Source of the DNA: Paraglomus brasilianum
Taxonomy: Eukaryota
Direction: 5' to 3'
DNA length: 45,129 bases
NCBI GenBank assembly: GCA_910592345.1
Contig: CAJVPI010000179.1
Coordinates: 1 to 45,129, forward strand
Shown here: piece after piece, positions 27,334-44,287 of the stretch
How positions within the stretch are numbered: position 1 is the first letter of the stretch
Layout of the letters: each line of letters begins with the position of its first letter
The notes under the pieces: generated by a model
Told to the model about the DNA's origin: nothing
What the model saw: only the letters and a program-made list of their open reading frames with translations
The model's database searches: none
Translations under genes and position numbers: made by a program

Positions 27334-27694
27334 TATCAGGTTGATTGCTATGTATTATAATGCATTATCCTATTACTATGGCGGATTGAATTCTATAGAA
27401 AAATCATATGTAACACACCGTTGTGCAATTTTCGAACATTCCCAATTTCAATAAACACGGTTAACTCACATTCTTAAACAAACCACATTTTTACAACCCT
27501 GGTTCAGAATAAGATTACCTACAAAAGTGCAAGTAAAATCCAAGAGACATATGTGTCTCGGTTGAAACATTGCCACCTCCGGAAAGGTTGCCGTTGTCTA
27601 CCAATGAACTTATTTTGCTCGTGAGAAAGACTATTAAGATACGTGTGCAGCAAATGTGATCAATTAACGATTTGTGACCGCGATCCATCATATA

Positions 27695-28351
27695 CAGTCA
27701 ATTCGGACACCAACTTTCCGAGGCCATCATCCGAATTATTTATATTATCGATTCATGGTGTGACAAAAACCGCCACAAATTTTGAAAAAGGTTCTAAAGT
27801 ATACTGTAATTTACGATATGAAACTTGACTAATTAGCCGACGAACGATTGATAAATAATCTACACGAATATTAATGTTATCGTTATTCTGTTCAAGAAAC
27901 GATAAAGACTGTCTTAATGCATCTTCGCCTTCTTTTAACGAAATTTTTATCAAAATTATCTTTTGTTATTATGATTTAGAACATCTTGAGTTTTTTTGCG
28001 GCAGTTAGATGTGTATAGGGTTTGGGATGTTTTTGTTTTTGGAACAATCCATAAAAAAAACTCTTTCGTAATTTGGACGGCTGGATTTTATTAAGCGTGT
28101 CCGAATTAACAAGAAATTATTACATATATTAATATGGGTAATGATCTGTAGTGGACGAATTAAAGTTAGATTTTACAATACTTAATTTATACAGTTAATC
28201 ACTTACAGTTGTCCGAACCGAATTAATCGAGATTTCATAATTATGGACGAATAAAAGGAAGGAATTTGATATGAAAAAACGAGTCCGGCATCAAGCGTCC
28301 GGATTATCGAAAATCCGAATTAAAGAGGGACGAATTAAAGGCAGTTGACTG
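27695..28351 (-). mobile_element. Internally deleted pogo/Tigger-like DNA transposon
   Basis: TA|CAGTCAA ... TTGACTG|TA termini and multiple (G/T)(A/C)CGAATTAA subterminal repeats at 28070-28340. ORF 27753-27953 (ISLKEGEDALRQSLSFLEQ...LQYTLEPF) resembles a pogo/CENP-B transposase C-terminus. Confidence 0.6.
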
Positions 28352-28362
28352 TAGTCTGTGTT

Positions 28363-28497
28363 TGCATGTTTCATGCGCGTAGGCTCCAATAAGATTGCAT
28401 GTTTCAGGCTCCATATAGGATTGCGCGTAGGCTTCCATATAAGATTGCATGCTTTATGCGCGTCGGTTCCATATAAGATTGCGTGTTTTCGGTTCCG
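28363..28497. repeat. About 5 imperfect tandem direct repeats upstream of the IS607-Fanzor element
   Basis: Recurring units built from TGCATGTTTC / TGCGCGTAGGCTCCA / TATAAGAT. Confidence 0.8.
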
Positions 28498-28610
28498 CCA
28501 TTCAAATACCGACAACCATAAACATATTTAAAGACATTATCCCCAAACTCTTTAACCATTGCAATATTGCAATATTTTGCTCATTTGAAATCCAAATCGT
28601 AAACACATAA

Positions 28611-30184
28611 TCTCTCCCCAAAACCACCACTTCAAACAAAAGGAGGTCCTCAGCTCCTCAATCTACGGATAGATCACAGGACACGAAATTGGTTCAGGGC
28701 TCAATTGGAAACGCAGGGCCCTTTTGGAACAAATATACTCTAAAGGAGTCGAAGAAGTGGTGGTTACCCGAAAAGACCGCTTGTGTTGCTTTGGATCCAA
28801 ACTTGTGGAGCTCGCAGAAGACCTACTCGCAATCGTCACAGTGTTTGTGGCGTGACATAATGGACTATGTTCGGCCGCAAATCGCAGAAGGAGAAGAGAA
28901 GCCGCCCAAGAGGTTCAAGAAGGAAGTGAAGAAACCTTTAGTAGGCAAGGTCTGACGTATTCGCGTTTATCCCAACCAGCAGGAACGGCTGAAACTCAGA
29001 AGATGGATGGGAACAGCACGATGGACATACAATCGGTGCCTTATCGCTGTCGAAAAAGAAAGTATCAAACGAGAAAAGAAGGATTACGCGCACTATGTCT
29101 CAACGCCAAAAACTTCAATGATACCGAACTTAAATGGGTCTTTGAAACTCCCTACGACATTCGCGATGAAGCAATGAACGACTTGCTTAAAGAATATTCT
29201 TCCAATTTTGCTGCCAGTCGTAAAAATTCAAGATGAAACTCCGTTCCAAAAGGATCCTCAACAATCAATTACGATACTTTCTAAACACTGTGGCAAGTCC
29301 CATGGGAAATATTTATTTTTTCCTAAAATCAAGTCAGCAGAATCTCTTCCATATAATAATAAGCTTGAATATGATAGCCGCCTTGTTATGAATCGACTTG
29401 GGGGATATTATCTTTGTATACCCAGACCACTTGAAATATGGGCTGAAAACCAAAGCCCTATATCTCAAAAGGTTTTTTTTTATTATACTATATTATCTAT
29501 TAAATTAAAACTTTAATTATTAATTATATATTTAACAATTTAATAGGAGGTGATTTCTCTGGATCCAGGTGTATGTACATTCATGACAGGTTATGATCCA
29601 AGTGGAGTAGGGTAAAAATGACATTGGCCGAATTTATCGATTAAGTCATGCATGCGACAAGCTTCAAAGTAAACGCGATTGTATGCATGGGGAAAAAATA
29701 AGCGAAAACGTTACAGGTAAAATTTATTAATTAAATTATTTATTTATTTAATATTTATTTATAATTTAACATATATACTACTTTCAATTGTAGATTACGT
29801 CGTGTTATGTTACACATTCACAAGAGGATCCGCTGTCTTGTGAATGATTGTCATCATAAACTAGCTAAATGGCTTGTGAAAACTATCGCATAATATTACT
29901 ACTCGAATTTCGCACTCAAGGAATGGACAACGACGCATTGGTTCCAAGACTGCTCGAGCCATGTGTACATGGTCACATTATCGCTTTCATTTGGCACGTG
30001 AGCATCCCTGGTGTCGAGTCGTAATTTGTACAGAAGAATACACAAGTAAACTTGTGGATCTTGCGGTTATATTAGGGGCTCCAAGGTTTTTTGCTGTCCC
30101 CAATGTAAAACAAACCTTGGTAAAGATATTAATGGTGCTCGCAATATTCTTCTTCGATATCTTACAAAAAAGGAGTCAGCTTAG
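28611..30184 (+). pseudogene. Fanzor2 / IS607 TnpB-like RNA-guided RuvC nuclease, decayed, two introns
   Basis: Stitched frames give PFWNK..KKWWLPEKT.CV.LD.N.W, RIRVYP..W.GTARWTYN, TPYDIRDEAMNDL, YDSRL, RuvC-I ISLDPGV(C)TF (D at 29562), HHKLAKWL, HYRF, shifted Glu TEEYTSK, Zn finger CGSC..CPQC, and RuvC-III DINGARNI (D at 30125), with TAG at 30182-30184. Premature TGA at 28953 and several frameshifts. Confidence 0.92.
28685..28900 (+). pseudogene. tnpA: IS607-family TnpA serine recombinase remnant (C-terminal two thirds), overlapping the Fanzor frame
   Basis: The frame starting at 28685 reads EIGSGLNWKRRALLEQIYSKGVEEVVVTRKDRLCCFGSKLVELAEDLLAIVTVFVA*HNGLCSAANRRRRR. This matches IS607 TnpA motifs D.GSGLN.KR, DRL.RFG and EL.EDL..I...F.AR..G.RS. 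The catalytic YARVS and HTH are not found. Confidence 0.88.
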
Positions 30185-30266
30185 GCTGACGCGGGAGCCT
30201 ATTCCCTGACAGGACTTGTTATTCCTAATGTGGAGTTTTATTAGTAATGATAGGTTTTAATGTAGG
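30175..30266 (+). ncRNA. Putative omegaRNA scaffold / right end of the IS607-Fanzor element
   Basis: Hairpins at 30175-30190, 30193-30206 and 30211-30258 (19/20 pairs, many G-U). GCCTA (30197-30201) is complementary to TAGGC (30263-30267). Located directly at the 3' end of the nuclease gene. Confidence 0.6.
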
Positions 30267-30689
30267 CGTCACTGTTGCAAGTAATATAAGACACACTGTA
30301 ATAGTAATCTTGCGATTACTATCATCGTAAAGTAAATTTACTTATTAGTAGCATAGCACTGGATATGAAAGCCGTTGTCATAGAAGTTGATAATGTAGAA
30401 CTTTATTGCTAAATATTAGCAAGCTGTTTATATCTCAAGATTGTAATCTCCTTGTTATATATCTCGACAGACTATTGATCTCTCAAAGGATTGATCTCGT
30501 TATCTTTAACTGTGAGAGTGTTGAACTTACATTTAATATTGACGTTGTTCTGGTCATGTACCCTTAATGAACACTTTATTTATTACATGAAGCCGCGAAT
30601 ATAACACTACGTAAATTTACTTTACGATGATAGTAATCGCAAGTCTATTATTATAGTGTGTCTTATATTACATGCTTGCAGCAGTGACG
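30267..30689. mobile_element. MITE/foldback-like element with about 75-bp terminal inverted repeats
   Basis: Arm 30267-30341 (CGTCACTGTTGCAAG..TAATATAAGACACAC..CTTGCGATTACTATCATCGTAAAGTAAATTTAC) is the near-perfect reverse complement of 30611-30689. No TSD seen. Confidence 0.75.
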
Positions 30690-30741
30690 GTTGTTAGTAA
30701 ATTAGTCGTCGTCAATTTGGGGTTCTTTGACGAGATCTATA

Positions 30742-31290
30742 CAGTATGTGACGAAAAAAGTTGCCGTTTTTATGATAACTTCCTGCATATCTATACCAAT
30801 TTTACCACAAAACGCGTTGCGTGAAAAGCAAAACAAAGCTTATGTTTATGGTATATTTCTAGTTCTATTTTTTCTGCGTTTTCATTTGTGTCTTTTTAGA
30901 AATGGATTCTCTATAGAATGTTTCACTTACGCAAAATGACAAGAAAATAAGTTTATTACATTTTTGAAAGCAAATACGCTCTGTTTCGGAATTAAGTAAA
31001 TTGACTACGTATAGCATGATATAACGGAAAGAAAATAATATGTTGGAACACAGATGTGGAAATGGTCGAAAGAACGAGGTGGATAATAATGTGGCTAGAG
31101 CGCTTGGCATATCGATTTTTTAGGTCGGTGTTTAATCAAGTGGATATCAAAAAGCAGGTGTATTAAAATGCCAATGTTTATCGAGAAACACGAAGGAGAT
31201 CGTATGTGGAGGGCGCAAAACACCTCAATGATAATTGTCTTCACTGACGAAACAGTGTTCCAATATTTAATAAACGGAATGTGGAAAAAA
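30742..31290 (+). mobile_element. Tc1 element left portion (decayed)
   Basis: TA|CAGTATGTGACGAAAAAAG terminus; peptides EHRCGNGRK..VARALG, PMFIEKH..R and IVFTDETVFQ (first Asp of DDE). Confidence 0.65.
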
Positions 31291-31420: not shown

Positions 31421-31804
31421 GAGAATATATATAAAAAACGGTGGAGGGACGGAATAATATTCCTGGTGTGATTGTAAATCAATAAAAATCATTGTCAACA
31501 AGTTATGAAAAGTAATGGGAATTGTGACAATTAAAACGAAATCGGATTAAAATGAAAATTTCTCTATTTTAATATGAAAATTCAAAAATTTTGGGGGCAA
31601 TTTTGGGTTGGGATTTAGGGTAACCTTTGTTAACAGAAGAGTATTAGTATATGTGAGTTTCACAAGCCGAATATCTACTCGAGGGAATTAAATTCTAGGA
31701 CTAATACCCGATTTGCCGGTTTGATCCTATCGCTCGCTCTTATATTCTCATTAATTAATAAAAGGTTTATTATTTAGTCTTTAAATTGTCAACGATTCTT
31801 AGTA

Positions 31805-31977
31805 CAAATGGCTCTCGATATAAGAACCCTTCGATATAAGAAAATTTTGATATAAGAAAGTATTTTTGCTGGACCCGATTTAAAATCTTATAACAAATGA
31901 CTCTCGTTATAAGAGATTTTCGATATAAGAAAGGAATTTGTTGGCCCCGATCACTTTCTTATATCGAGAGCCACTTG
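31805..31977. mobile_element. 173-bp Tc1/mariner-superfamily MITE
   Basis: 22-bp TIR CAA(A/G)TGGCTCTCGATATAAGAA with 1 mismatch, TA on both flanks (31803-4, 31978-9), and internal repeats of (C)GATATAAGA. Confidence 0.92.
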
Positions 31978-33426
31978 TATTAGGCACTTCAGAAATGTAC
32001 TTTTTAGTGATGAGCCGAATGTTGTACTAATGAAATGCTATTTCGACGATAGGATTTTGCTCTGATAAGGTTCTCTTTCCTTTTTGGTCTTTGCGCCGTG
32101 TCCACTTCTTAATACCTTTTGAATATCTGATTATATTAAGCTTGAAATAAGTACATTTAATACTCAAATCCAATGAATATTCCCGTTCTGGTGAAATTTA
32201 ACTACAGTGCACCAAAAAAGTAAAGAGAATAATATTTTTATTTACTGTACAGCAAGAGCTTGGAAGGGCAAGACTACCCAATAGTTTATCTTATTACCAT
32301 TACTTGCAATTACCTCCTTGGCATCCTACGAGCTAAATTAACAAAAATTTCTTTCGACTTATCTCAAGAAAATTTATGGTAAATGCTTTTTTTTAATACT
32401 AATAAACTGTAAGCTGAGGCGATATTTTATTTTGATAAAACAATTCTCAAGCAAAATACGAACAAACTGAATTTAAAACAAACCCTTTCTAATAAATCTT
32501 CAATCGGGTTAATATACGACGGCCAATCTATAATTTTGGTACCTTGTATGAGAAGTTCATGGTTTCCTTATGCTTCGGATCGTTGCGTTACTGGAACATT
32601 ATTTTTTTCTCACAACAATAACGTCATTTGCATAATCAAAGAGATGTTCAGTTAAAAATGTGCACCATTCATAAATATCAGCGACGATTCATTTTATTCT
32701 CGTTAGTTTTTGCGCGCACTGTACATATAATTGGTACTAATATCAACATATCCTTTCTTTATCAGCCCTGCTTCTAATTGTTTCTATTGTTGTTCTCGAG
32801 AATTGGTTTTTAATGCTAAAAGCTTTTCAGAATAAAGTCGACAAATGTCTTCCTTTTGCATAGTTTTTGTGGTGTTATAAATAAGACTGAGTGCAGCTCA
32901 GATTCATGATATAAATTCGTCATATTTGATAAGTGCTTCGTTCAATGAGCGGCTGGGTATTTTAAATCAGTTATATCTCTTGAGCAAGCGTTTGTGTTAT
33001 AACGTGGAATTTATAGCGAATTACGGAATTCTCATTAACGAATGAAGTGATGTGTTGCGTAGAAATGAAATCGGTCAAAAGGATCTATCTAGTTTTATAA
33101 TCAATTTTCCAGTTTACCATTATAATAAGCTTTCATCAAACATACAATACGGCCATGGACTTGAAACTCTGTCTATCAAACAGTTGGTTCGGTATGGTAC
33201 AATGAAAACAAAGTTTCAAACAGAAATGGGGTAAGCCAAATCTGTGGCGCCCAGCAAGTTTGAACCCTAAAATCTATCCAAGGCTGGTGGTTTTGCCATA
33301 TTAATACAATTATCATTGTGTCTATTTGCAACTTCCATAATAATGATCACATGATGAACATCTGACAATTAATCGTTATAAAAATTCAACATATATTTAC
33401 CAACCTCATACTTATAATATTTCCAA

Positions 33427-36400
33427 ATGTCTGACGCCGAATTCGCAAATGTAGAGTCTAATGACGCCGCAGACAAAGACGCACACGCAACAATGGCGTC
33501 AGAAATAGACTATTTGGAAATGTCAAAAGATGTTGGTAAAGAAAGGCAGTCAGATGACGCGATGGTTGATAAGAAAGAAGGCATAGCTCAGTCTCGACCG
33601 AGAATACGTTATACTCAAGAGCAACTGCTGGCATTAAGGCACAGCCCACTAGTAAAGCGGCCAGATGCTTTGCCACCAATGAACTCTTGGTTTGGGTAAG
33701 GATTCTGGCATATGCAACGAGTCAATCCAGTTTCTCAAGCTTCAACATTATAACTAGTCTGGTTAACTACCAAGATCTGCTTCTAGCAAGACTAATCAAC
33801 GTTGTTTTTTGTTAACTCAGCGAACACATCAAACGAGACAACAAAAAATTGACCGGAGACGGAATAGAGGGTGATAATAAAAGGTAGTTGAATGCATGCT
33901 TTAAACTCGGCGAAGACATTTTATCGAATCCGGACTGAATAGAGGTTGACTTTTTTCGTCTTTTTACCTAGCAAAAATTATGGAGAAGGCTCGAGTAAAT
34001 TGAAAGATGATGGGATAGGACTAGGGATCCCAAAGAGCCCGGCATCAAGCGTTTCGAAAAGTCCAAATGGTTCGGCACCTACTTCTCCGCGACCTGCAGG
34101 TAAATTTGGCATTCAAGTACTCCAGCTTATAGTTTGCGAGTGTGCTACTTCTTACTTTGTATTCTTAGTTCAAGAAAAGATTGTCTTAGGACCTCCGAAG
34201 ATGAATTTTGCTTCAACTTCACTGGCAGGACTGAAACCTTCTGGGGAAAAGTTACCTGCAAGATCAAACAGAACCGATGGATCGCGACGACAAGTAAGCG
34301 CGTTAAGCTGCCGTCTTTGCATTTGTTGATTTATTATGCTAACTCCAATTTTGGCAGACAGATGATTTGATATATATGAAACCTTCCAATAAAGAATTTG
34401 AACCACGAGCACCGCGAGGTCCAACTGGTGGACGAGGGTTTGTTGGCAGGGAGGCTTTGCGTGAGCGAAATCTTGCTGAAAAGGCGTCTAAAGAAGCTAA
34501 TACTTTTTCAAGCAATACAAACGGCCGACTAACAGCAGGCGCAAGACCACACGAAACCACCAGAGGTAATAGAAAGGATGGTAAATTGTGGAGCACTAAT
34601 TGGTTATGCAATATGTTTCGGATCATGACCTGTCGCACAAGTATTAATATTGTTGGGAAATCTTATCTCTTACCGCATGTTCTGTATTTAGTTGGTGTGG
34701 GCCATAAAGACTTAAATAGAACGAGCAATTCGCGGTATCATAATTACCAAGAAGATCGTTCGGAGACACCAGAATGGATGAATTATAATCCGCAAACAGA
34801 CGAAACAATGAAGAAAGGAAAGAAGAACGATGATGACAATAAAGCATTTATTGACGATATTCAAGCATGGAAGCTTAAAATGAGGGAACAAGAAAAACAT
34901 AAGCAGCGCGTGGAAAAGGATCGTAAGGATCCGAATGAAAGAAGTAGACCTCGTAGTATGTCTCGTGCTGATAGCAGCGTCTCATGGAGAGCGGATAGTA
35001 AACTCGTCGGTATAGAGGGGCATATGACGGCGATAGCCGGCGCTTTAAATGACAAGGAGAATATGATAAAAGGAGATACAACGTTCGATATTGATGGTAA
35101 TTATTTTCTTGTTCGCATGTCGTACGCTGTTACTTGGGAAAACGACTTATTCTAATTTTCAATAGTGAAACCGTCAAAGAGCACGAGCAATGTGCCCAAT
35201 GTTGACAAACTATTTGGCCTGGGTGGCTTGGATATTAACGTCCCTTTAGATCCCAATTCTTCAGCGTTTGATAATTTTCTTTCCCAACATAGACTTGCCA
35301 TCGCTGAAGAGAATGTAGGGAAGATTAATAACGTTAAAGAGCTAGAGGGCCCATCTCGCGAACAAGAAACTTCCCGATTTGCAAGGTTCTTCTCCCATAG
35401 CGCGGAGAAAGGTATTTCTGATATGGACAATGTTGACGAATCGAAAAAAAACTCTATGCCGGCACAAGTCACGTCTGCGTCTAAAGATGTACCTAGATCG
35501 GGAGCATCGATAAAATTTGAGACTTTATTTCAAAATCAGACGACAACTAACCATTCTACTCCACTGTCCCCAAGCACAACTACTAATGATGGCAAACGCA
35601 TGCTTTCAGAAGCAGAAGTACTGCAAAGCCTTGGCGCCAGGCCTTCTTCGAAGTCCCATGATTTCGATGACTCTGGTGTCGATGATGTCATGGGATTCAA
35701 CAAAATTCTTGCAGTTTTGGCAAAAGGCAATGTAAGCTCCTGTATTCATGCTGCTTTAACTTTTCTTGACGTCCTGAATAGTCGGATTTTTGTACCCTGA
35801 CGGAACAAGCAACCTGAAACCTAAAGTCTTGTTGATAACCATTTTGTAGAATGCGATGGAGCCACCCTCAAACTTTTCAGTATCCCCATCTATTCACGCA
35901 GTACCGGCTTATCAACCAGGATTAGCACATCAAGGGCTTCCTTTTAACGACCCTTCTATTATTATTGCTCAGAAACCCGTCATGGGAAACAAGCCTCCTA
36001 AACTTGAAACGCCGAATAGAGGAATGGTCATTCCTGACGCGAATGCATCAGATTCCGTCAAGAAGATTAATATGCTGTTTGGAGGGAATGTGCCGACGTC
36101 CGTTTATAGGCAGCTGAGCTCCAGGTCCGATGGTGGTTCTAGAGAGTCGTCTGGAGCTTCTTCGCCTGCCCTTAAATTTAATTCCGCAAAGCCTTTGGTA
36201 CCTAGTTTTTCACGTTCGCCGATTATACCCCAATCCCCTCCTATCTCAGACTTTCATGGATCTGATTTCAAGGCTGCAGGGCCTCCAAGGTCACCAGGTC
36301 TTCCGCAGCAGGGTAATTTCAATCCATCCCCATACCACGGAATTCATCCACCCTATTCGAATGGGAATATGTCGTTAGGACGTGACTATCCGCAACCACC

Positions 36401-37006
36401 TCCACAACCTCCACCTCCGCCACAATTAGGGCGTAATATTCCAGTAGAGCAATTGTTTAACTTGGCACCGCGGAACCCTCAACAACTACAATCTCAGTTT
36501 CAACAAGCGTCCATTCCAGTATCAATGCCTCCACCTTTTAGTTATCAGCAGCAACAACAGCAGCAACAACAGCAACATCATCATCACCATCATCAACATC
36601 AACAGCAACATCATCAACCCCACCAAGCACATCAACATCATCATCAACAACCACAACACCCTCATCACCCCCATCACCCCCATCAACAACAATTCTCAGG
36701 GCCTGCTATACCACAACAGTTTGCTGTTCATTCGCACCCTAATATGCTGCACCCAGGCGCTGAAGCTTTATTTGCAAATATGCATGGATATACACAATTC
36801 ATACCGAATATTGTCAATAGTGCTTTAGCACCTAATTCTCTATCAGGTTAGCGTGTTTGCTATTTATCTGTTTCTCTTACAAAAGTGATACTCGACAACC
36901 TAATGAGGTGCATGACTATTTAGGAATGCCATCAAATACTAGTCTTCAACAACGTAGCATGATGACTTTGGAGGAGATTGAGAGGCGCGGACTCGGTGGT
37001 CGATAA
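33427..37006 (+). CDS. eIF4E-binding protein, 4E-T/Eap1-like, multi-exon, with Q/H/P-rich C-terminus
   Basis: Canonical YxxxxL-phi motif RYTQEQLLALR..SPL in exon 1, then ETPEW, SRFARFF, and MTLEEIE in the terminal exon (36924-37006, TAA 37004-37006). Confidence 0.72.
36546..36692 (+). repeat. Coding CAN-triplet low-complexity tract (poly-Q/H)
   Basis: CAG/CAA/CAT/CAC runs encoding QQQQQQQQQQHHHHHHQHQQQHHQPH... Confidence 0.9.
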
Positions 37007-42158: not shown

Positions 42159-44287
42159 TTAATCCCATTGAGAAGAATCAAGTGGTTTTTTCTGTCTTAA
42201 TTGCGAAAGTATCGCCTGAATAAAGAGAAAAATCGAGGAATTTAGCACGCAAGTATTTTATCTCAGCTAATTGAATAGAATGCTGACCTTTGAAATATGG
42301 TCTACTCTGTCAGATGCAGAAGGTGTGCAACTACTGTACTTGAGTACTTCGCGCACTATGCACGGCAGCACTTTATCCAACGTGCTGTCTAAGTTAACGA
42401 ATGGCCATAATAAATTATTATCAGTGATTCTGCTACATTGAAACAAATACACACAGCATGTCAGTTACCTTCTTGATGTGTCTGCATAAATGAGTCTGAC
42501 AATAGTTCGGGTATTGTCATTCGTTTTTTGGCATCCCGTTGCAGACAACTCTTCATGACTCTTATTGCATCCTCCTCGACCGTATAAACAAGACTATCTA
42601 CCAAACTGGTTATTGATGGTTGCGATTTATGCTTATTTGCTATTGGTACTCTGCGAGGAAATGATATTGCGTAGTTTACGTCAGGAATATATTGGATCGC
42701 TTTTGCGACGTTGAGATGGGAGAATGGTGTGTGCCCATATATCATTTGGTACAAAATACATCCCAATGACCAAACATCACTTGGTCTTCCAACCTATAGA
42801 GACGAACGTTATTATCTAATACTGTTACGCGTCATAGTAAACAATACGGTAGCTTCCTCAAGATATTACCTTAAAAAGTTTCTGTCCGGAAGCACAGATA
42901 GTATTAGTGTCCATAATAGCTTCGGGTGACATGTAATTAATCGTTCCCATCTGACAAGCAAAAAACGAGTTAGAACAAATCATATAAAATATGATTTTAA
43001 CTTATTTGCAGTACCTGTGCATCTCGATAAATATTTGTTGTATCATTCGGTATAGCCTTTGCTATTCCAAAGTCTATTAGCTTAAGGGAACCGGCGACTA
43101 GAAGAAAATTAGCAGGCTTCAGGTCAGAATGAACGATAGCTTTTTCATGAATAGTCTGGACGGCTTGCAGCATCTTACAATGCAAAATAAAAAAAAAACA
43201 AAACAAAAACAAGAAAAAGACTAGTTAACTTTAGTCTATGAAATCAAATAATTGCTGGAAATAAGTTTTGCTTGGCGTGCACACCTGTCTCCAATATTCA
43301 CGTACTATAATCATGTCAGGCGGTTTCCCTTGCTGCTTACAAAGAACGTTCGCCAGATCGATATCGCCACATTCCATTAACTGCGAATGAACCAAAAATA
43401 AATATACTTGTATAAAATCAATACACCCGAACAGCCCTTCATTCCATTGCTACCATTAACAGATAGCCCATTTCGCGATTGACTTCATAGTCATACATTT
43501 GTATTATAGTGTCATGTCCTTGAAGCTGCTTTAACAGTTTGGTTTCATTGATATAACTCTCTACCGTATTCGCATCCACGTTCTCGAAGGAGACCTTTTT
43601 GAGAGCGTATGTTTTCCCATTTATATCTTTAACTTTATATACTTTACTGCTGCCACCTCTACCAATTACAGATTCACGAAAAAACGTCTTGCCATTGAGC
43701 TGAATGCGTTTCAGACCAAGAATTAAATGAGTATTGTAACTTCCAACACAATCGCTATCATTTTAATCAATACTTAACAGCGTATGATCCTTTGTTGTGT
43801 GAGATCGGTGCGATAGTTTCTGAGGGCTTCAGTAAGTATTAAATATGTCTTTTAATTCACAAATGACGCGATTTCCATAAATACAGAAGATAATTTGTTC
43901 TACTTACTTGGCTAGACAATGACCCTCCTATCAGTTGATTTGGGTTCACATCCTGATTCCTGTCTGCAACAATGTTTGATAATTGCAAAGCAATGCGTCA
44001 GTGTCTGTATGTTCAAGGACCACACATTACTCTATTTATGCCCAAAACTTTACCCTTGTTCTCCCAAACTTTGGCAACAGAGGGCGGTTTTTCCTCTTCA
44101 ACCGTATCATACGTGTCTGGTACTTTTATTCTTTTTGCGTGACCTTTTATCCAACTAATAAAGTCAGAATTAATCAGCGTTGCAATACATAATCATGCTC
44201 TAGATCTGTTATAATACCCAGGCTCTTGAAGCTAAAACGGCTGTTACGAAGCGAGGGACGATCTTTCGTTTCTGTTCGAAGATCCAT
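42159..44287 (-). CDS. MPS1: Spindle-checkpoint dual-specificity kinase Mps1/TTK, multi-exon
   Basis: [77 protein letters not shown] and [18 protein letters not shown]. The start at 44287 is tentative. Confidence 0.92.

Follow-up and report, generated by a model that had tools for sequence, protein, structure and literature searches.

The window, by which we mean the whole stretch of 45,129 nt of DNA analysed here, contains a dead member of a Glomeromycota family of IS607-Fanzor2 elements, the intact members of which have the nuclease gene overlapping TnpA in the +1 frame, contain introns, and likely produce one mRNA with a CUG-started TnpA (our probability for this reading is roughly 0.72). 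The preliminary description had already taken the region for a defunct IS607-type element with Fanzor2 in a fungal nuclear genome, the host being probably one of the Glomeromycota, and the lesions, fungal neighbours, introns, fold match and tree described below all agree with this. The element spans positions 27417-30269 on the + strand. Of the span first given (28611..30266), the left end did not hold, since the element begins at 27417, about 1.2 kb further left, and the right end is at 30268/30269. The 5' half of TnpA, at 27499-27597, lies outside the former span and was placed by alignment with sister loci. The features are as follows.

27417..27421, + strand: left junction and target ACCGT, with the shared core CGT
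27422..27498, + strand: left end and putative 5' leader, from alignment with 12 sister loci, internally shorter than in the sisters
27499..27597, + strand: 5' part of TnpA with MerR-like HTH; putative CUG start at 27499-27501; frameshifted in the window copy
27551-27553, + strand: first +1-frame ATG, putative nuclease start
27598..28671, no strand: foreign repeat DNA in place of mid-TnpA, about 1.07 kb, boundaries approximate
27695-28351: MITE in the foreign DNA, 657 bp, with CAGTCAA termini and TA on either side
28374-28489: short tandem repeats in the foreign DNA
28672..29120, + strand: 3' remnant of TnpA (GSGLN...VVTRKDRL...ELAEDLLAIVTVFVA), which has suffered deletions and stops prematurely at 28853-28855
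28672..29471, + strand: Fanzor2 coding part 1, with the remnant of the N-terminal extension and HTH/WED/REC; stop at 28953-28955, frameshifts near 29083, 29226 and 29249
29472-29546, + strand: intron 1, 75 nt, GT-AG, 92% AT, phase 0
29547..29716, + strand: Fanzor2 coding part 2, containing the DPG of RuvC-I; frameshifts near 29610 and 29696
29562-29570, + strand: RuvC-I motif DPG, D at 29562-29564
29717-29793, + strand: intron 2, 77 nt, GT-AG, 91% AT, phase 2
29794..30184, + strand: Fanzor2 coding part 3, containing the relocated E of RuvC-II, the C4 zinc finger and the D of RuvC-III; frameshifts near 29874, 29918 and 30049
30033-30035, + strand: relocated RuvC-II E in TEEYTSK
30125-30127, + strand: D of RuvC-III DINGARN
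30170..30269, + strand: right end and predicted omegaRNA scaffold; element terminus TGTAGGCG, then T
30175-30190, + strand: omegaRNA hairpin
30197-30202, + strand: omegaRNA hairpin loop, predicted to pair with 30262-30267 (pseudoknot)
30270..30690, no strand: host inverted-repeat (MITE-like) element, the left arm of which received the IS607 element

On rejoining the flanks, one obtains a sequence that agrees across the junction with the second, uninterrupted arm of the host's inverted repeat (arms of 68 nt, 91% complementary). ACCG is therefore target DNA, no duplication was made, and CGT is shared. The element has neither terminal inverted repeats end to end nor a target-site duplication, and CGT is the common core; a shared short core fits IS607 recombination as described in the available text of Yoon et al. 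(2023, PMC10711439). ACCGT was found in 6 of 7 distinct left junctions and ACTGT in the remaining one, and at the right a T comes directly after the terminus TGTAGGCG in 11 of 12 listed rows, one of which is the window. The 68-nt inverted repeat was also considered as an end of the element or as a downstream MITE and was rejected, the empty-site match identifying it as the insertion target. The Fanzor2* type, in which a transposon with TIR and TSD has captured the nuclease without TnpA, does not apply either, as TnpA is present and the adjoining inverted repeat is the target. A second ACCGT is located in the other arm of the host repeat, about 400 nt away (27411-27421 and 30270-30690), and the would-be guide of the window copy matches this arm at 11 of its first 12 positions; an active copy could thus have cut the same host repeat family.

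The 657-bp MITE within the foreign DNA is presumably mariner-like. Contigs of run X1 skip parts of the foreign DNA (27598-28671), and the same run contains many short contigs with the right end alone, which suggests miniature derivatives. The right part of the foreign DNA (28500-28680) is also present in L010:1-190, so that the rearranged form occurs elsewhere, and L010 may represent an orthologous locus or a non-autonomous subfamily.

In a three-frame translation of 28500-30320, all the motifs cited in the preliminary description were found on the + strand. The D and G of DPG are invariant across a 73-row alignment, and this motif defines Fanzor2 according to the accessible parts of Yoon et al. 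(2023, PMC10711439). The relocated RuvC-II glutamate, proposed earlier from TEEYTSK, was identified six residues ahead of the zinc finger (E-x6-C), with E354 and C361 of the intact relative P0012 invariant. The zinc finger of the window is of the C4 type (C-x2-C...C-x2-C), and the RuvC-III region has KD in the window versus RD in relatives. Profile searches by fragment gave HTH_OrfB_IS605 (PF12323, E 1.2e-8) and Cas12f1-like_TNB (PF07282, E 2.1e-7), and Rfam gave no match at E<=1 to positions 28000-31000. For a 74-aa piece of the window protein 14 relatives were found, those with names being from Diversispora epigaea and Ambispora gerdemannii. The AF2 model of P0012 (pLDDT 91.3) has ApmFz2 (9B0L) as its best Foldseek match (E 1.7e-21, TM 0.72); for the intact relatives 9B0L tops both sequence and fold matches, with Fanzor1 far lower.

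The fragmented frames noted before do stitch into a TnpB/Fanzor-like protein, but two of the breaks are GT-AG introns rather than decay. With both introns removed, the read-through core is identical to P0012 at 253 of 358 aligned residues and still has 1 stop and 8 frameshifts; the window copy is therefore dead, and its function would have been lost through nested insertions and small deletions. The TnpA remnant was upheld by DNA-level alignment with intact sister TnpA, although its Pfam resolvase match was weak (E 0.063, below the cut-off). In sister loci TnpA is complete, with a MerR-like HTH and a serine-recombinase domain upstream of the nuclease, and it is split in the window. The TnpA of L008 matches annotated IS607 transposases by tblastn.

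The neighbouring genes, which include a TRAPP subunit, IleRS and kinases, are fungal:

5.7-10.6 kb of the window: TRAPPC8-like gene
13.4-17.4 kb of the window: IleRS gene
2053-2934 and 42464-43762: kinase fragments

The IleRS exon shares 96% identity with that of Paraglomus occultum and 83-88% with most other Glomeromycota listed. On these genes, the host is taken to be a Paraglomus-like Glomeromycota fungus. There was no RNA record among the listed holders of the window stretch. Two further regions of the window were noted: positions 33943-36851 contain long ORFs without a good Pfam match and a His/Gln-rich repeat (36525-36698), and a further small element at 31797-31982 has 27-nt inverted arms and internal 16-nt repeats.

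Sister loci were collected by a metagenome scan, which returned 57 loci, and 45 of 58 loci align to the window by blastn. The preliminary description had pointed to the value of intact sister copies, and these exist: in L001 and L003 neither the ends nor the two frames are damaged. L003 to L006 are 99.8-100% identical over 2.17 kb and have 4 different right junctions and 2 different left junctions, which points to recent movement of the family. The host of these copies would be close to Diversispora, since the proteins of L002-L006 share 85-86% identity with D. epigaea gene models, gaps counted. Since L003, L005 and L006 have a common left flank but not a common right flank, some of these contigs are probably chimeric, and for this reason no left flank of a metagenome contig was paired with a right one. 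Many copies of the family are decayed. One locus (L061), on a 2.3-kb GTDB contig of 32% GC titled as a Rummeliibacillus MAG, is 68% identical to the fungal-type nuclease and may be DNA of a fungus that was assigned to a bacterial MAG during binning.

Rather than lying one after the other, TnpA and the nuclease overlap in two frames. In intact loci the nuclease reading frame, +1 to TnpA, stays open over the entire length of that gene, and in the window its N-terminal extension (PFWN...KKWWLP) overlaps the TnpA 3' remnant in this frame. Stops in the +1 frame were counted against a synonymous-codon null in 76 representatives, to which the 119 loci left after filtering were reduced at 80% identity. 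Over TnpA there were 0 stops versus 70.3 expected in soil-metagenome loci (10 representatives), 4 versus 229.6 in GTDB loci, mostly cyanobacteria (23), and 29 versus 406.6 in viral loci (37), whereas the canonical IS607 control had 84 versus 85.3 (6 representatives, from the 7 of 12 IS607 regions that passed HMM filters; plasmid L218 lacked TnpA). A stricter within-gene permutation lowered the expected numbers to 29.0, 74.3 and 131.7 for the soil, GTDB and viral sets, with 86.9 for canonical IS607. Annotated canonical tnpA and tnpB overlap by 4-38 nt in 11 of 12 records and not at all in the twelfth. Stop depletion in the soil, GTDB and viral sets but not in canonical IS607 indicates that the whole-gene overlap is ancestral to the pro-Fanzor/Fanzor2 group. 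An initial viral scan with a narrow alignment had given 1 weak locus. In the viral contigs L185 and L203, TnpA is on the strand opposite to the nuclease, and the overlap has thus been broken in some viral elements.

The part of the nuclease encoded in this overlap carries a conserved PFW motif in 50 of 73 relatives; single-sequence AlphaFold gave no reliable model of the full-length relative P0015 (pLDDT 35.8). In the available portions of earlier reports the N-terminal extension appears as a 100-aa insertion (Gilbert and Cordaux 2013, PMC3673617), as a disordered region (Saito et al. 2023) and, in ApmFz2, as a domain that touches both guide RNA and target DNA (Schargel, PMC11832414). No statement on the overlap of the nuclease N-terminus with TnpA was found in the accessible portions of the open literature searched, and the words 'overlap' and 'TnpA' have 0 matches in the available text of PMC11832414.

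Besides the two introns of the window copy, a third one, 65 or 73 nt long and missing from the window, is present in TnpA of L001-L006, L011, L012 and L017. Its length is not a multiple of 3 and it sits in the dual-coding region. When it is retained, both frames stop at 124-152 codons; when it is removed, TnpA has 274-276 aa in all four loci compared (L001, L003, L012 and L017) and the full nuclease has 591-592 aa in L001 and L003, the two loci with the whole gene. Intron 1 is missing at the exact junction in L009 and L035, and intron 2 in L001-L006, L009, L023 and L035. Among assembled contigs, intron 1 is skipped at the exact GT..AG in runs X18 and X19, the third intron likewise in one contig of run X20, and contig depth over intron 2 is near zero in X19; in DNA run X5, the exact joint was seen neither for intron 1 nor for the third intron. 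These skipped forms support, but do not prove, spliced RNA, as the 'RNA' label of X18-X20 is a program's guess and the data are contigs, and they could be DNA because intron-less genomic subfamilies exist. The presence of introns among L001-L046 is patchy: of these elements, 78-88% identical to each other, some have just the first, some all three, some the second and third, and some none. This pattern may reflect how a transposon gained and lost introns.

The first in-frame ATG of the fungal TnpA genes is at nt 705-729 (438 in L008), past the HTH and the catalytic motifs. At the position where relatives have ATG, A-N-N-CTG-G is found in 14 of the 14 fungal-type loci with that region, representing about 5-6 lineages, and in the window. 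CTG accounts for 5 of 96 Leu codons in the nuclease cores. Indels just upstream of the CTG break the frame, and the one downstream is a 9-nt in-frame insertion. The first AUG after the CUG, 52-61 nt away, belongs to the nuclease frame; in L008 it is shifted by one codon, and in the main group its context is weak (C at -3). Over the 17 codons next to the CUG the ratio of synonymous to non-synonymous differences is only 43:60, and the left end contains ATGs 160-190 nt ahead of the HTH, which are relevant if transcription begins upstream of them. In GTDB rows TnpA starts at ATG in 33 of 43. The viral locus L144:1355-2056, from another branch, has G-A-A-CTG-G at the same TnpA position with a stop just upstream, and this TnpA contains no Met at all, making it a probable second case of CUG initiation. 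Whether the next ATG is in the +1 frame was also tried as a test and is non-discriminating, as this is true of 3 of 4 canonical IS607 elements too.

The shared intron, the skipped forms and the AUG-less TnpA with its conserved A-N-N-CUG-G suggest that leaky scanning of one mRNA yields both TnpA and Fanzor2. One spliced mRNA would encode both proteins, and removal of one intron would restore both frames. Scanning ribosomes would start a minority of the time at the weak CUG, giving a little TnpA of 275 aa, and would mostly pass on to the first AUG and make Fanzor2 of 591 aa.

It is also possible, though unlikely, that TnpA comes from a separate or alternatively spliced transcript with its AUG in an upstream exon and Fanzor2 from a later AUG via an internal promoter, the CTG being kept for another reason, e.g. 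TnpA binding. In 13 of 14 loci a CAG comes after the CTG and could be an acceptor (at CTCAG, close behind the CTG), later +1 ATGs are available at nt 454-565 and 712-715, and automatic gene models begin at these later ATGs. However, L008 and L144 retain CTG-G without CAG, a contig of run X19 is colinear upstream through the CTG site, the later AUGs would lose the PFW motif, and the +1 frame is free of stops from the first AUG onward. We consider it quite improbable that the fungal TnpA is untranslated debris kept open as a by-product of the nuclease N-terminus, with non-autonomous elements moved by another recombinase. The missing AUG and the decay of many copies would fit such debris, but several lineages keep HTH and YARVS intact in a frame 0 of 275 open codons, among them 17 that precede the nuclease AUG in a stretch with a stop in the +1 frame, and the ends and target of these recently moved copies obey IS607 rules.

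A bacterial or endosymbiont IS607 element, present by contamination or very recent transfer and not adapted to the nucleus, is scarcely credible. Cyanobacterial pro-Fanzor elements do share the overlap and the motifs at 35-47% identity, and TnpBs occur in the endobacteria of Glomeromycota, but the GT-AG introns of about 90% AT, together with the junction match, refute such an origin. The element is furthermore inserted in a host repeat, contains a nested MITE, is flanked by fungal genes, has a window-like GC content of 35-40%, and groups with eukaryotic rows in the tree.

The structured 3' end reported earlier was confirmed in the window, where it folds at z -2.15 (4 of 200 shuffles being equally good); the long stem has a 19-nt apical deletion. 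In all 7 sequences examined, the fold of the terminal 135-150 nt is better than that of shuffles (z -1.8 to -4.1). Among 8 related sequences only, 97.5% of cells in the omegaRNA stems are paired versus 35-53% in slid controls, and two hairpins have two-sided changes at 3 pairs. The hairpin loop is complementary to GUAGGC adjoining the element boundary; in the same 8 sequences this pseudoknot helix is 93.8% paired, without two-sided change and with a mismatch at one pair in 3 of 8. The predicted TAM is (A)CCG, because in ISXfa1, the logic of which we follow, the TAM is GGG and the own end CGG; the element's own end, GGCG and not ACCG, would by the same logic escape cutting. Guided by the 3' omegaRNA together with about 20 nt from the right flank, Fanzor2 would cut empty sites that lie behind the (A)CCG TAM, which would promote retention or homing of the element; the occupied end, reading GGCG, would be spared. 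TnpA would excise and insert the element by recombination at the shared CG/GT core. For the window copy, the guide would be the first 20 nt of the host element at 30270..30690.

In a phylogenetic tree built by a quick method from 108 rows, which left 40 of 105 branches unresolved and had no ApmFz2 or NlovFz2 row, the window protein was placed, as expected from the earlier assignment, among the fungal-type loci within a 44-row eukaryotic/viral clade (SH-aLRT 98) that also contains amoebozoan (Phalansterium) and viral rows. The cyanobacterial pro-Fanzor clade (96) and canonical IS607 TnpB (94) are separate from it. These placements hint that the family may have entered via another eukaryote or a giant virus and not directly from bacteria.

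Of the known systems, ApmFz2 (mimivirus L79, PDB 9B0L), as described in the available text of PMC11832414, PMC10530073 and PMC3627910, is alike in fold, domain order, DPG motif, relocated E, N-terminal extension, absence of TIR and TSD, 3' structured RNA with a pseudoknot, and a short GC-rich TAM (pseudoknot and TAM being predictions for the fungal family). The fungal family differs from it in being nuclear, in having up to three introns and a TnpA without AUG, and in its predicted TAM, (A)CCG and not GGG. Cyanobacterial pro-Fanzor IS607 elements of the ISArma1 type (available parts of PMC10711439 and PMC3673617) share DPG, the shifted E, the serine-recombinase partner and, by our computation, the same whole-gene +1 overlap, at 35-47% identity; they differ in having no introns, in forming a separate clade and in the mostly ATG-started TnpA given above. 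NlovFz2 of Naegleria lovaniensis is, by description only, a nuclear Fanzor2 with TAM 5'-CCG and a disordered N-terminal extension, and the portions of PMC10432273 consulted do not mention introns or a CUG-started TnpA.

Whether this lineage had been described, which was left undecided before, can now be answered, since it is already catalogued as Glomeromycota FZ2. Supplementary Table 1 of Saito et al. (2023), in the part available, lists GET01997.1 (Rhizophagus clarus), RHZ81291.1 (Diversispora epigaea) and CAG8576195.1 (Ambispora gerdemannii), and proteins of this family from Glomeromycota are also in the accessible part of Table S2 of Yoon et al. (2023); the available parts of the supplements of Jiang et al. 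contain none. Compared by eye, the catalogued proteins in these tables have the same motifs and intron-1 junction peptide as the window family. They are automatic gene models only, often two-frame chimeras or fusions with host sequence, and for them the accessible text of Saito et al. and Yoon et al. gives neither the boundaries of an element nor a start codon, a guide RNA or any activity. The open literature searched contained no papers on IS607 of arbuscular mycorrhizal fungi and no relevant title for CUG leaky scanning of a transposase or for Fanzor in mycorrhizal fungi. The new part is thus the shared intron, the proposed CUG start of the recombinase, the ends and target, and the intact recent copies.

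The window copy, being dead, is of little use beyond fixing the target site. For the family, we lean slightly, at a little better than even odds, to a recently active, autonomous nuclear IS607 family in arbuscular mycorrhizal fungi, in which one intron would serve both frames and the recombinase start would have weakened from AUG to CUG, as in a giant-virus element too, so that leaky scanning would set the ratio of recombinase to nuclease. The anatomy implies that Fanzor2 proteins of this family stand in databases as truncated or chimeric gene models, and the longer N-terminus is advisable for testing. If the reading is true, the family would offer a Fanzor2 of 591 aa, having a TAM of the CCG type, as well as a serine recombinase already functional on eukaryotic chromatin, and a conserved CUG-started transposase in a dual-coding spliced region would be an unusual device of expression control. 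True transposition of bacterial IS elements in eukaryotic nuclei was left open in the available text of Gilbert and Cordaux (2013, PMC3673617); with near-identical, intact, intron-bearing copies at different sites, IS transposition in fungal nuclei becomes directly testable.
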